A stretch of 63,291 bases of DNA, counting the filler, from Rhabdomonas costata (taxonomy: Eukaryota), in assembly GCA_019059605.1 (NCBI GenBank). It is 55 parts of 55 records of this genome, joined end to end, with 100 filler letters (N's around TTAATTAATTAA, not from the genome) between each part and the next. Parts side by side here need not be neighbours in the genome. Positions count along the whole stretch, not along the records: positions 10,375 to 11,427 come from JAHMHO010031193.1; 54 more parts are not named here. The stretch is one strand, 5' to 3'. The stretch's first letter is position 1, and the number at the start of each line of letters is the position of its first letter. A program made the translations under genes and the position numbers. Positions 8,575 through 55,640 of this stretch are shown here, piece after piece. The notes under the pieces are model-generated. The model worked only from the letters and a program-made list of their open reading frames with translations, made no database searches and was not told the origin of the DNA.

Positions 8575-8785
8575 CAGTAGGTAGTATAACGTTGGTGCGA
8601 TACGTTGCATTCTGCTACGGACCCCGCTCCGCACGGGAATCTGCTGGAGGCTGATCCGCACCGCCACCTGCCCACCCCCCATGGGCTTCACTCGGCGTGG
8701 TTGCCCCGGCCGGGTCTGGGAATCGAACTCTCGACCTTTCTGCCACAAATCTGGCACCCAGACCATAAGACCGGCCATACCAGAT
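8575..8785 (-). mobile_element. tRNA-derived SINE candidate or pseudo-tRNA
   Basis: The minus strand reads TGGCCGGTCTTATGG (A-box-like), TTGTGGC (His-type anticodon-loop-like) and GAGTTCGATTCCC (B box). A GC-rich body and a TACTACCTACT tail follow. The cloverleaf stems are imperfect. Confidence 0.35.
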
Positions 8786-9221
8786 TCCTGGTTTCTGGCG
8801 GTGCTTCGAATAAGAGCCAGCCGAAAAATCCACACACACCCCTTGGCGCGTTTTGCCCCCCTGTCAGACGGCACGGCGGGCTCGGACCAATTACGTGGCT
8901 CTTGCGACTTCCCCGCTTAGCCCACTCGATCCGCTCCCCTCCGTGGTCCCTCCCGACAAAGCTTTCGCTTTGTGAGCGCTGTCAACTCACCTATGTCCAC
9001 AAATGGTCCCCAAAAACCCGCGCAGAAACACACCACACCACCTGAACTTCCGAAATGTAAGAAAAAGGGCACCTCACTCGAAAAAGGGATCCTCGCTCAC
9101 TCCTTTTTCGTCGGTCGGGTTNNNNNNNNNNNNNNNNNNNNNNNNNNNNNNNNNNNNNNNNNNNNTTAATTAATTAANNNNNNNNNNNNNNNNNNNNNNN
9201 NNNNNNNNNNNNNNNNNNNNN

Positions 9222-10088: not shown

Positions 10089-10375
10089 CTGAAACGCGTC
10101 CGCAGGACCAAAACTTACAAGGAAGGAACAACCCTATCCTTTGAATTCGCCGCATCCTAGCGGTCAGAGCAATTGCCCGGATGTTTTCATTGCAAAGCAA
10201 AAAACAAGCAGCATTGTCAGTTTACAAAGGGAAGACCCAGCTAGGCTGCTCGCCCCTCGACAACCAAAACCCCCNNNNNNNNNNNNNNNNNNNNNNNNNN
10301 NNNNNNNNNNNNNNNNNNTTAATTAATTAANNNNNNNNNNNNNNNNNNNNNNNNNNNNNNNNNNNNNNNNNNNNG

Positions 10376-11246
10376 ACCGTCACGCAGAACACGTCCACTG
10401 CCACAGGGATTATCCCCAACGGCTCCAGAGGAAAGGTGGTGGCCTTTAGCACGATCACACGGAGACAGTCACAATGATGGGCAGCGGTCGCTTTCATACC
10501 TTCTCTAGGGTATCTTCTCAACCGCTTCATGACAATTCCAACGTCAGCCTGAAAAGATCTCAATTTGCTCTGGAGCTCGCCTGTGCGACCACTCGTCTGT
10601 CCACGAAAGCCAGGGGGCAACAATTCCATGCATCGCTACAACAGTTGATGGCCAAAATAAGAATCGCTTCTGGAGCATGCTCTTTACCCTCTTGAGCAGG
10701 GTCAGGTCTCTGTCGAGCATCTATCTCGTAGGATACAACCTTCTTGCAAGCCAGCTGGTCAAGTCTCTTCTTCTGACGACCAACCATTGGTACAGTAGTG
10801 CAGACCACTGGGTTCAATCCGCCAGCCTCCTGCGACAGGTTTCTGAGCAGCCATTGATTCAGCCATCACGATCTTCTGCTCCCTTTTACGGAGGTGGGCT
10901 CCAAGCTCCTGGGCCCAACGAAAACGCAGTTTATTTCTTTGTCAGCAGACAGCATGGAATTACCTACGTCGGTTCCTCGACAGATGTTTCACACCGCATT
11001 GACCTACACAATGCCGGGATGGGGGCCTTGGCATCTTTTTTTGCGCGTGACTGGGACCTAAAAGCATGCGTTCTTGGATTTCCAACTGGATCCAATGGAT
11101 ACGCATGGGCAAAGGACTTTGAAACAACGTTGCAGCAGCAGCGTGCAATGCCCTATCCTCCGCTTTCGTCCTGGCTTGCGAAAGCGGTGATTTTGATGGA
11201 GACCTGGAGAGCAAGAGAGAATTTCCCACTTTGGTTGCACGTCTAG
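10376..11246 (+). mobile_element. Degenerate PIF1-family helicase C-terminus fused to an SLX1-like GIY-YIG endonuclease (Helitron-like or other element-derived ORF)
   Basis: Across two frameshifts (~10448 and ~10594-10598) the reading is TQN..GIIPNGSRGKVVAF / KRSQFALELACATT-VHESQGAT / LFTLLSRVRSLSSIYLVG, the PIF1 C-terminal motifs. It continues in frame into VYFFVS..ITYVGSSTDVSHRIDLHN..G...W..KACVLGF...DFE (GIY-YIG). No introns. Confidence 0.8.
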
Positions 11247-11794
11247 ACCTGGAACGTTTTTGTGGACTATTTCTGTGTGCTCTGTTTCAGTGTTCCATTT
11301 CGGCGGATTAAAGCCATCGGAAGAAATGGATCTGAGCAAATGAGCTTCTAACTTACAAATTGTAACCTTGATCAGAAACCTTCTGGCTCCCTCAATTTGA
11401 CCAAATACCTCTGCGATACAAAAACCCNNNNNNNNNNNNNNNNNNNNNNNNNNNNNNNNNNNNNNNNNNNNTTAATTAATTAANNNNNNNNNNNNNNNNN
11501 NNNNNNNNNNNNNNNNNNNNNNNNNNNTGTGGTGTGTGAGGACTGTCCTCCGTGCTGCTCGGGGATGTGTGGTGCGGTTATTTTGGGCTCTGAAGCGGTC
11601 GATGCATGACACGCTGGTTTCCGATGCCCGAATGAGTGGAACCCTCCTGTCAATTGAATTGGCTTTGACAAGATGTATCCTTGGTTCATGGGGTTTGGTC
11701 TGTGCATGCAACGTTGTGACAGAACGTGTGCAGTGTGTCCCCTCATCTTAGAAACGTCTCCCTGTGCCTCATTTTATGTTTGTGTGCACTCAAG

Positions 11795-11956
11795 GCTCTG
11801 ACGGGGAACTTCAAGACAGTTATGGACTGGGCGGCGAAGTACCGCCGGCTGAAGGTCCGCACCAACGCAGACACCCCCAGGGACGTCGCCGCGGCGCTGC
11901 GGTTCGGCGCGGAGGGCGTGGGGCTGTGCCGCACGGAGCACATGTTCTTCGACAAG
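11795..11956 (+). CDS. ppdK: Pyruvate, phosphate dikinase, internal exon
   Basis: caag|...|GTGTGC exon of 162 nt: [21 protein letters not shown]...[16 protein letters not shown], the PPDK signature. Confidence 0.95.
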
Positions 11957-12708
11957 GTGTGCACTTTTGCGTAAGCGCTCGCTGATCTGCGAAACGTTTG
12001 TATTTGCGTGGAATTCTGTGCAGCAGGCGCAGCAGCCGTGCAGAGGATCGGCAACCAGTCCCATTATTCCCAAAGAAACCCTAATGGCGCACAAATTAGT
12101 CGCATGCAGAAGATGTGCCGAACAGAAGAGCATGCCTGAGGCGAGATTTCCTCCCGTTGCTCACAGAGGCACCCATTCGCCCTTTTTGGATCTCACAGGC
12201 TCTTGTGGTTTTACGAGGATGACTTTTTCGAGACTCAGGAATGCATTCACTGGGATCCCCATGGAAAAACCCCTTGACTCCGCAACTGAAGAAGACCTCC
12301 TAGATGGATGCCACTGATCTGCCCATTTCCGTTGGTCCTTCAGTCATGGGATCCTTCGCGCCCGGAAATGCTTCACCGTACCAGACGAGACACGGGTGCG
12401 ACAAGCATCGTAACGTCCCCCAACTAGGTGTCATGGCCATCAGGGTATTTCCCACCTCATTGTTGTTAGGAACCTGCCATCAGTAGTGGAAGCAGCATTT
12501 TTCATACCCTTTGGAAGACCTTGTCCACCGCAGTGAGGGCTGGGGGAAGAACCATCTCTCTCCAGGAGATCCACCAACCCNNNNNNNNNNNNNNNNNNNN
12601 NNNNNNNNNNNNNNNNNNNNNNNNTTAATTAATTAANNNNNNNNNNNNNNNNNNNNNNNNNNNNNNNNNNNNNNNNNNNNTTTTGGTTGTCCCGATTTTG
12701 TGCCCCAG

Positions 12709-27757: not shown

Positions 27758-28516
27758 GTCGTACCTTCACGGATATCCACCGGGAGTTCGTGGACGATGT
27801 GACCATTCCCAGCCGCAAGGGCAAGGCGCCGCTGCGCCGCGTGGAGGAGGTTTTCGACTGCTGGTTCGAAAGGTGGCTGCTCCCCCCTCCCTTCTGCTCT
27901 GCCCCGCCGCGTGCGCGTGCGGCAGGTGGTGCGACGTGCAGACGTTTGTAACAGTTGGGTCAGGTACTCCGGGTTTGTGCCTGGACCTCGGCCTGAAGTG
28001 GTCCCCATGGGGTTCTCTTTATTCCTCGTCAAAGACTTCTTAATGGCACTAAGTGGCGCCAGATCTGAGGATAATCGCTGTTTTGACAGCCCCCTGAGTT
28101 CATTGAAGAGGGAAACGTGGAGTCCAAGAGATGGTGCCAGATGGTGAATTAACAGACATCCCCATGCACCACCATCTCGCCTACTCTGTTGACGGCTCGT
28201 CCGTCTCTTTTTTTCAGCTCTCACTTCTGCACCACTTCCCCCACCCCCCTGGATTTTCGGGTTCTTGCTACTCCCGCTGAGCAGACTCTGGACATTGTTG
28301 GTTTTGGTGCCCGTACTTCTTCACCTGAAGGCTGTGAAGACTTGTGTGCTGGAGGGGATTGGGCGGGGGTTCCTAGCGGCTCCATGCCGTACGCCCAGCT
28401 GCACTACCCCTTTGAGAACGTGGAGAAGTTTGAAAAGGGCTTCCCGGCGGACTTCATTGCGGAAGGTCTGGACCAGACCCGGGGCTGGTTCTACACTCTG
28501 CTGGTGCTGAGCACAG
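27758..28516 (+). CDS. IARS1: Cytosolic isoleucyl-tRNA synthetase; exons 27758-27872 and 28377-28516
   Basis: [14 protein letters not shown]...[28 protein letters not shown]...[20 protein letters not shown]. The intron splits the Ser codon AG|C. Confidence 0.96.
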
Positions 28517-28895
28517 GTGCTTGCGCTGCTGGGCCCCCTTCCTTCCACCGGAGGCCACACACTTCCACACCCGAATATTTTTGCTCCGGATTGCTATTGG
28601 GAGCGGTGTGTGGCTATGAGAGGTTTTTTCTACTGGTAGTTTGGCACACGCACAGGGATCCCATTTTTAACTGACTAAGGTAAGTTAAAAATGGGATCCC
28701 TGTGCGTGTGCCAAANNNNNNNNNNNNNNNNNNNNNNNNNNNNNNNNNNNNNNNNNNNNTTAATTAATTAANNNNNNNNNNNNNNNNNNNNNNNNNNNNN
28801 NNNNNNNNNNNNNNNGGGTGAAGAGAGATTTTCTGGCTGTGAATACTTCTGCCGCCTCCGGAGGCACCCATCCTTTTGATCTGATCCTCGCATAG

Positions 28896-53920: not shown

Positions 53921-54221
53921 CTGCGAGGGAAGCCAGAAAGGCGTGGAGATGGCCCGACCGGGATGGCACGTCACAGAAGGAAAGACACCATGGAGATGGA
54001 ATAAAAGAAAACAGTAGATGGAATTAGATGACGACAATAGTCTTGATACCCAACAAACAACANNNNNNNNNNNNNNNNNNNNNNNNNNNNNNNNNNNNNN
54101 NNNNNNTTAATTAATTAANNNNNNNNNNNNNNNNNNNNNNNNNNNNNNNNNNNNNNNNNNNNCTACATGTCTGTGTCCATGAGGGAGGGGTCGGACCACA
54201 GAGCCACATGTGCGCAACTAC

Positions 54222-54747
54222 CTAACGCTGTTGCCGCCGAGAGGGTTGCGGTGGAGTCGATGTTGGGGCCCGTGGGCTTTGGCTTGGCCGGTTCTGCAAT
54301 CGTGCCCTGCATCCAAGACGACAGCAAGTGAAACGGCACCGCCAGAACCGGGGAGACGTTGAAATCGTGGAACACCCAGTCATATATGCTCTGTGGGTTG
54401 GTGGCCGCGATCCCCACGACGTACGTCCGCGTGCTTGCACTGTAGGCCACGTACATCGCGCTGCAGGCGAAGCCCTCCGGAGGGTCGGTGACGACATACG
54501 CCGCGGGACCCCACACGACCTTCCACGGCGCGCCCCACAGCTTAGCAAAGACCGGGGTAGTGCCTTTGTTGAACAGCGGGAAGAACCCGGGGTACGAGAA
54601 GCCCGCGGGGTTGACCCCGCCGTTGAGGCTGACCTCCAGGTAGGCCGTGAGGTTGGCCTGCGAAGCTTTGATGTTGGCGGCCCCGTTGGCCGCCTGGTTC
54701 ATGAGGTACATGCTCTGGACGTCGCAGTACTGCGTCACCGAAGGTGC
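54222..54747 (-). CDS. Class-3-lipase-like alpha/beta hydrolase, N-terminal part (one exon)
   Basis: WKVVWGPAAY...AMYVAYS...YVVGIAATNPQSIYDWVFHDFNV precedes the nucleophile elbow in lipase-3-like proteins. The catalytic GxSxG is outside the contig. Confidence 0.7.
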
Positions 54748-55640
54748 CTTTGGGAGAGAGAGGGTGGCACTTGTGGAAAAAGGCCGATGCTTGAAAACGA
54801 AGCATATAAAAAAATTGCTGCGGTCGCTTGATGTGCATATGAGCGAGCGAAGGAGACCATGAAAAACGATGACTACAGGGAAAAAGGAAGGATTGCCAGT
54901 ACCCATTTGACCAGTAGTTCAACAGGGAAGATAGTGCGAATGGGAAACAACGGTTAGCTTTCGGAAATTTCTGGCGCATTGGGTTGTTGCAACTGAAGGG
55001 AATCATTGCCGATTGGGTCTTGCTGCTGTGTCTGAGTCCAGTGATAAGCCTAAGAGCTCTGCCCTGCAGTTGAGTGCGTTGCATTCCCTTTGTGGCTGGT
55101 CCTTCGACGGGACCAAGCAGACGTCATGCTAGAACAGCCACAGTCACATAAACAACTAACCTTTCGTTTCCAGTGACGCGGACCTCACCACCAACACCAA
55201 CCACACCCACCACNNNNNNNNNNNNNNNNNNNNNNNNNNNNNNNNNNNNNNNNNNNNTTAATTAATTAANNNNNNNNNNNNNNNNNNNNNNNNNNNNNNN
55301 NNNNNNNNNNNNNGTGCCTCCTTTCCATACACGCACCTGGTGTTTTCTTATAATCCCAAGCGCGAGTCTGCATCCGTGCCGGCTGAGAGGCTCTTTTTGA
55401 AAGGAAGGAAAAGAAGGAGACAAGGTGAAGATGCTCACTTGTAGCCATGCCTGCACTTTTATTTGTTATTTATTGCCAATACCGTGTAGATTGCCGAAAA
55501 ACGTGTGTTTCTGTGCAAGTAAGACTTCGTCTTTTTTCATTTTTCATTTTTTCTTATTTTTCCGGTTTTTTTTTCGTGCTTTCTAAGAATCTCTCTCTGT
55601 ACTTCTCTGCATACCGCTCTGTTTGAATCTTCGTCCTCAG

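Follow-up and report, generated by a model that had tools for sequence, protein, structure and literature searches.

Helitron-like elements reshape eukaryotic genomes. The canonical Helitron Helraiser (PDB 7lcc) is a Rep-helicase protein that ends after the helicase, with no nuclease domain behind it. Helentrons and HLE2 elements encode one long protein in which an HUH Rep is followed by a PIF1-like helicase and a C-terminal endonuclease, the Helentron enzyme being of the Exo_endo_phos (AP) type. The accessible text of the 2024 HELIANO report defines the groups HLE1 and HLE2, lists AP endonuclease, RPA and OTU as accessory domains, with OTU a known accessory of Helentrons, and proposes DUF6570, located upstream of Rep, as an HLE2 marker (PMC11417382). 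That text also describes HelenSM92, an HLE2 family of the moss Sphagnum magellanicum, in which a GIY-YIG domain is called 'captured' and is assigned to this one family (PMC11417382). A full-text literature search, with subscription papers and Repbase outside its scope, found GIY-YIG linked to Helitron-like elements only in the HELIANO paper and its preprint.

GIY-YIG nucleases have other partners as well. SLX1 has a C-terminal RING finger and is partnered with SLX4. In the accessible parts of the published descriptions, Tlr1 of Tetrahymena (Tlr8Rp) and polinton-like virus helicases combine an SF1B helicase with a C-terminal GIY-YIG domain, the Tlr1 nuclease is termed I-TevI-like, and the N-terminal part of the Tlr1 protein is an inactivated family B polymerase (PMC5499653, PMC1564403). 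A 2006 survey, as far as its accessible text goes, reports plant MutS homologues to which SLX1-like domains devoid of a RING finger are appended (PMC1564403).

The locus compared here with these systems lies in a window of 63,291 bases from Rhabdomonas costata, the whole stretch of DNA analysed, which is made up of 55 pieces, each 1042-1066 bp long, with N/TTAATTAATTAA spacers between them. Its carrier contig (10375-11427, 1053 bp) has such artificial spacers on both sides. Because the window is a concatenation of contigs, reading neighbouring 'genes' as context is unsafe; the genomic context of the feature is limited to 10375-11427, and the adjoining pieces are not its genomic neighbours. Searches with blastn and tblastn found no second copy among the other 54 pieces of the window. 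The contig very probably carries the last 870 nt of a Helitron-like rolling-circle transposase gene with the order Rep-helicase-GIY-YIG, in which the presence of Rep is read from relatives.

The preliminary description joined three reading frames into one protein, and the pieces are indeed collinear on two homologue profiles: a broad profile of 46 homologues with at least 130 residues upstream, run on all six-frame segments of the contig, and a clade profile of the 6 closest helicase-bearing relatives. Frame B, open from stop to stop at 10533-11246 (+), encodes 237 aa; the 189-aa ORF reported earlier is this same frame counted from its first ATG (residue 49). On the broad profile frame B scores E 2.8e-15 (profile positions 130-181), the frame C segment 10450-10692 E 2.3e-4 (positions 100-132) and the frame A segment 10376-10474 a weak E 0.081 (positions 40-65). 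The clade profile gives frame A E 1.1e-4 (positions 51-77) and frame C E 3.7e-4, with the next-best six-frame segment at E 1.1. When 97 homologues were compared with the contig by tblastn, five (P0001, P0003, P0014, P0031 and P0074) showed a frame C match that ends at 10593 and directly precedes, in collinear order, the frame B match of the same homologue. Frame A appears in tblastn through weak collinear matches of P0008 (E 0.56) and P0067 (E 0.75).

These three pieces span the end of the helicase. The frame A piece (10376-10456, +) covers part of domain 2A/2B (TVTQN..PNGSRGKVVAF) and is cut on its 5' side by the contig end. Frame A runs into a stop at 10475-10477, by which point frame C has been open since 10450; homology to the clade profile ends at 10456 in frame A and resumes at 10498 in frame C. 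The first break, from A to C, falls between 10457 and 10474 (+), a position that holds if a single event caused it. The frame C piece (10498-10593, +) contains the SF1B helicase motif V region, KRSQFALELACATT, and the second break, from C to B, occupies 10594-10598 (+), where five bases lack a counterpart in the closest homologues. This is the 5-nt insertion recognized earlier, and P0001 and P0014 read CATTVH ungapped across it. The frame B helicase part (10599-10739, +) supplies motif VI and completes the helicase core (VHESQGAT ... LFTLLSRVRSLSSIYLVG). The invariant R, Q and T are retained in frame C, as are H, G, T, W and R in the helicase part of frame B.

Pfam carried the preliminary assignment halfway: the 237-aa ORF matches GIY-YIG (PF01541) at E 5.7e-8 (33.4 bits, cut-off 22.6), and UvrD_C_2 appears only at E 0.13, leaving the helicase unconfirmed by Pfam alone. 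The two upstream frame pieces by themselves gave nothing useful against Pfam or NCBIfam. The helicase call rests on the homologue profiles, broad and clade, both of which match the PIF1-type C-terminal motifs that had been noted by eye. The feature is that of a PIF1-like SF1B helicase, of which the contig holds the last motifs only. The helicases of the homologues match Pfam PIF1 and the human and yeast PIF1 structures at E 2e-16 to 3e-31, and P0008 alone matches human PIF1 across the whole helicase at E 2e-16.

The helicase is followed by a linker (10740-10925, +) that is conserved across the family alignment. The AlphaFold model of the 237-aa ORF (mean pLDDT 78.1, pTM 0.53) places two helices here, at residues 70-81 and 85-96, and then about 20 low-confidence residues. 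Block means of pLDDT reach 90-98 over residues 121-237 and fall below 50 for residues 1-21 and 101-119. That the helicase-nuclease junction is a chimera of two unrelated genes, created during assembly or amplification, is barely conceivable. Such an origin would draw on the shortness of the contig, but the junction lies inside one uninterrupted 237-codon frame, and the helicase-linker-GIY-YIG order recurs together with the conserved linker in independent sources (80 rows aligned).

The nuclease core (10926-11144, +) is a GIY-YIG domain of the SLX1 lineage, recognized by Pfam PF01541, and the full catalytic set listed in the preliminary description (two Tyr, Arg, His and Glu) is present in the window copy together with the Gly. 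The SLX1 relationship proposed there holds at the level of both sequence and fold. The 237-aa ORF has a match in the SLX1 homologue 7wme (E 9.6e-5), and a 25-sequence family profile matches SLX1 chains in the PDB at E 4e-17 to 5e-14, bacterial UPF0213 at 1e-8 and 9e-6, and T4 endonuclease II at 0.42; UvrC and I-TevI gave no PDB match to this profile at E<=1. A Foldseek search of the model against the PDB returned only Slx1 or HIGLE at ranks 1-11 (E 2.7e-5 to 1.8e-2), with Pif1 helicases appearing weakly from rank 12 (E 0.22). Beyond the core, the nuclease C-terminus (11145-11246, +) forms a helix (residues 211-229) and a short strand and then reaches a natural stop; the homologues end at an equivalent point, P0001 aligning up to 11243. 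Since the ORF ends 33 residues past the Pfam core, there is no RING finger. Among look-alike GIY-YIG clusters in the protein atlas, which serve as leads, a few members come from Chordata and Bacillariophyta.

A search of 1.84 billion representative proteins with the 237-aa ORF yielded 97 matches at E<=1e-3, 20 at E<=1e-10 and one at E<=1e-30. In most of the 97 the aligned part is the C-terminal end, which covers query residues ~17-235; the closest of them (35-38% identity) are short fragments with no upstream sequence. Records in ENA and Logan are the source of the relatives, some of which lie on contigs 540-723 kb long. A separate homologue search limited to longer lengths, again with the 237-aa ORF as query, returned no match, and residues 1200-2520 of P0008 used as query matched only P0008 itself and P0105. 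A Pfam scan covered 32 of the 97, namely 30 of at least 605 aa and two short top matches. PIF1 and GIY-YIG occur together in 27 of the 32 (E<=1e-3); in the other five, P0001 shows nothing, P0003 and P0071 GIY-YIG only, and P0027 and P0058 PIF1 only. Helitron_like_N is found in 5/32 at E<=1e-3 and in 7/13 long relatives at E<=1. Exo_endo_phos is absent from the window ORF, from all 32 at E<=1e-3 and from all 13 long relatives at E<=1.

The seven Rep regions detected by Pfam share F.T.T..PG, EFQ..PH.H and Q.H.C..RC..CR, and a family Rep profile derived from these regions detects Rep in 17 of the 24 matches of at least 1000 aa. These are the seven builders, eight others (E 1e-52 to 1e-77), and P0021 and P0050, each of which has a partial Rep tail at a truncated N-terminus, at the expected distance. 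Rep was not found in the remaining seven. Of these, P0009, P0066 and P0093 are proteins of a different kind whose local matches are short or multiple, and in the other four the helicase is preceded by no more than 551 residues, a stretch too short to extend into Rep. The Helitron-like character suspected from the start is thus seen wherever it can be: a Helitron-type HUH Rep is present in 15/15 relatives whose helicase is preceded by 900 residues or more, and for this reason a Rep-helicase-GIY-YIG gene, of which the fragment would be the 3' end, is the best reading.

Across these 15 full-length proteins, the HUH histidines and two tyrosines (Y..KY) of Rep, the Walker A lysine, Walker B glutamate, arginines and glutamines of the helicase, and the Tyr, Tyr, Gly, Arg, His and Glu of GIY-YIG are invariant. 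The window copy belongs to this Rep-helicase-GIY-YIG family, whose domain order and catalytic conservation are observed in the relatives. A quick maximum-likelihood tree, computed with 80 rows from the C-terminal module that they share, places it within an 18-row clade (SH-aLRT 98) that includes the Rep-bearing P0008 and P0027, and Rep-bearing proteins are present in all major branches.

A stand-alone PIF1-GIY-YIG protein that never had a Rep, whether a host repair gene or a gene of a polinton-like virus or Tlr1-like element, is an improbable source of the fragment. Several matches of 556-1175 aa do show only PIF1 and GIY-YIG, among them P0004 (770 aa), which lies near the window copy in the tree, and the accessible descriptions of Tlr1 provide a published precedent for an SF1 helicase with a C-terminal GIY-YIG (PMC5499653, PMC1564403). 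In full proteins, however, Rep ends ~480-600 aa upstream of the helicase, and the shorter matches have at most 704 aa before the helicase, too few for a complete Rep; where looked up, they come from contigs of 2.4-3.7 kb. None of the 15 matches long enough to reveal a Rep is without one. The Tlr1 nuclease, moreover, is I-TevI-like in the text accessible (PMC1564403) and the window nuclease SLX1-like, which argues for a separate fusion. By the same descriptions, the relatives of the window copy also differ from Tlr1 in carrying an HUH Rep upstream, not PolB. The 'virus-like' element offered earlier as an alternative found no backing: a search of viral contigs with the 237-aa ORF yielded no relative, and among viral structure models only stand-alone giant-virus GIY-YIG proteins match, over the nuclease part. 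The Rep-helicase-GIY-YIG transposase remains the preferred reading.

An intact, intron-free ORF of 2439 aa at L001:5428-12747 (+), on a metagenome contig with a GC content of 0.34, is a natural full-length exemplar of the Rep-PIF1-GIY-YIG family. Rep occupies residues 885-1276, PIF1 1816-1966 and GIY-YIG 2322-2398. A different record, L002, contains this locus again, with 99.5% identity across 15.2 kb.

A comparison of this family with the described systems brings out both shared parts and a different nuclease. With Helentrons and HLE2 elements it shares the single long protein that runs from HUH Rep through a PIF1-like helicase to a C-terminal endonuclease, and weak OTU-type protease matches in some relatives of the window copy are a further likeness to Helentrons. 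The endonuclease, in contrast, is an SLX1-lineage GIY-YIG where that of Helentrons is Exo_endo_phos, and the proposed HLE2 marker DUF6570 is found in 0/13 long relatives (E<=1). With Helraiser the family shares the Rep-helicase order and the Rep motifs F.T.T..PG, EFQ..PH.H and Y..KY, but Rep has diverged too far for a single sequence to give a match in that region. With the 15-protein full-length profile, Helraiser scores E 1.6e-27, the helicase giving the best part of the match; PIF1 structures score E 3e-31 and SLX1 E 7e-15. SLX1 and HIGLE give the best sequence and fold matches of the nuclease and have the same catalytic residues; the window nuclease differs from SLX1 in its missing RING finger and its fusion to a helicase. 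Plant MSH1 and Penelope-like retroelements likewise end in a GIY-YIG without a RING, going by the accessible text of the survey (PMC1564403), but their partners are a MutS ATPase and a reverse transcriptase, respectively.

HelenSM92, compared here through its published description, is likewise a Helitron-like element with GIY-YIG beside RepHel, and it answers in part the question, raised in the preliminary description, of whether this architecture had already been described (PMC11417382, accessible text). The family is a little-described but widespread variant of a known transposon kind. As a lineage without the proposed HLE2 marker, it may stand outside both described groups. Tentatively, and with somewhat more doubt than confidence, it can be regarded as a deep, unnamed Helitron-like lineage in which an SLX1-type GIY-YIG is the ancestral, catalytically conserved third domain of the transposase. 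If this were true, it would be a third endonuclease solution in eukaryotic rolling-circle transposons, beside none in Helitrons and an AP endonuclease in Helentrons.

By analogy with Helraiser, Rep would both nick and join the single strand at the ends of the element, and the PIF1-type 5'-3' helicase would peel that strand off for rolling-circle transposition. The GIY-YIG domain could then add a cut beyond those of Rep by nicking duplex or branched DNA, either at the target or at the donor. This would equal the task that the AP endonuclease, which sits at the corresponding position, is assumed to have in Helentrons. Kinship with SLX1 would fit the cutting of branched or hairpin DNA. The SLX1-type nuclease is fused in every member inspected and its catalytic residues are invariant, a sequence pattern which suggests that the extra cut belongs to the chemistry of transposition and that the nuclease is no captured cargo. 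If so, the same job has been filled twice by unrelated nucleases, one AP-type and one GIY-YIG. The family thereby offers a comparative and experimental handle on the step beyond Rep, whether target nicking or the resolution of a branched intermediate. Annotation is affected too, as pipelines that seek Rep, helicase and AP endonuclease may mislabel such tails as SLX1-like host genes.

In itself the window copy is unremarkable, a fragment of this family that, with two frame breaks in the helicase tail, is probably dead. The loss of function looks recent, because the nuclease ORF and every covered invariant residue are intact. The contig keeps 14/14 of the family-invariant columns that it covers, a count that excludes the frame A rows, which the fragment-adding alignment misplaced onto frame C and B columns, and one frame C residue aligned to an unrelated column. 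The same preservation, together with a natural C-terminus and three homologous pieces that are all free of in-frame stops, could also mean that the gene is intact and live and that both breaks arose as errors in an assembly of low coverage and high fragmentation, made of 1-kb contigs. This is unlikely, if a good deal less so than a gene without Rep. Indel errors usually occur in homopolymer runs, and the sequence, read directly, has such a run at neither break; the second break, furthermore, consists of five extra bases and is no single-base slip. A recently dead copy of the transposase gene is the favoured account.

The 3' flank (11247-11427) extends 181 nt from the stop to the contig end and has a fold z-score of -0.45. 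Termini typical of Helitron-like elements are a 5' TC with a 3' hairpin plus CTRR, or else short terminal inverted repeats accompanied by a hairpin. The Helitron hairpin and CTRR end anticipated downstream are absent from these 181 nt, and the element end may lie beyond the contig; the only inverted repeat of the flank is a 13-nt overlapping palindrome at the stop. The weak GC3 bias remarked on earlier is upheld: the ORF has a value of 0.53, and the two comparators from the window are higher, a 47-codon pyruvate-phosphate-dikinase-like exon with 0.96 and a 251-codon ORF, no proven gene, with 0.74. The first is an exon-like stretch at 11819-11959 (+), which by its motifs we take to be pyruvate phosphate dikinase-like; since it combines this GC3 with an end at GT, host genes appear GC3-rich and intron-bearing. 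A second exon-like stretch, at 28399-28548 (+), shows a likeness to an isoleucyl-tRNA synthetase motif. The 251-aa open frame is at 54166-54918 (-) and has weak protein-atlas leads (score 0.86-0.87), including one cluster with Lipase_3 on 55% of its members.

Further features appear outside the three shared domains. In P0086 the nuclease is followed by a Ulp1 (Peptidase_C48) protease domain (E 2.5e-10). Sub-threshold matches to OTU occur N-terminally in P0046 and P0064, and C-terminal to the nuclease in P0042. In the AT-rich flanks of L001, a single AT-rich copy, no clear element ends were found. Degenerate direct repeats with a spacing of ~500-1100 bp lie upstream of its transposase ORF (L001:1500-3100), where positions 2219-2379 are a 161-bp copy, 84% identical, of an internal ORF piece at 8766-8926, and a palindrome with 22-nt arms occupies positions 1105-1149. 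Finally, the 15 full-length relatives share a Cys/His-rich block upstream of Rep, GGQ....C..H..PL ... C....C.......CP...C....C, which matches no Pfam family and may be a zinc-binding DNA-recognition module.
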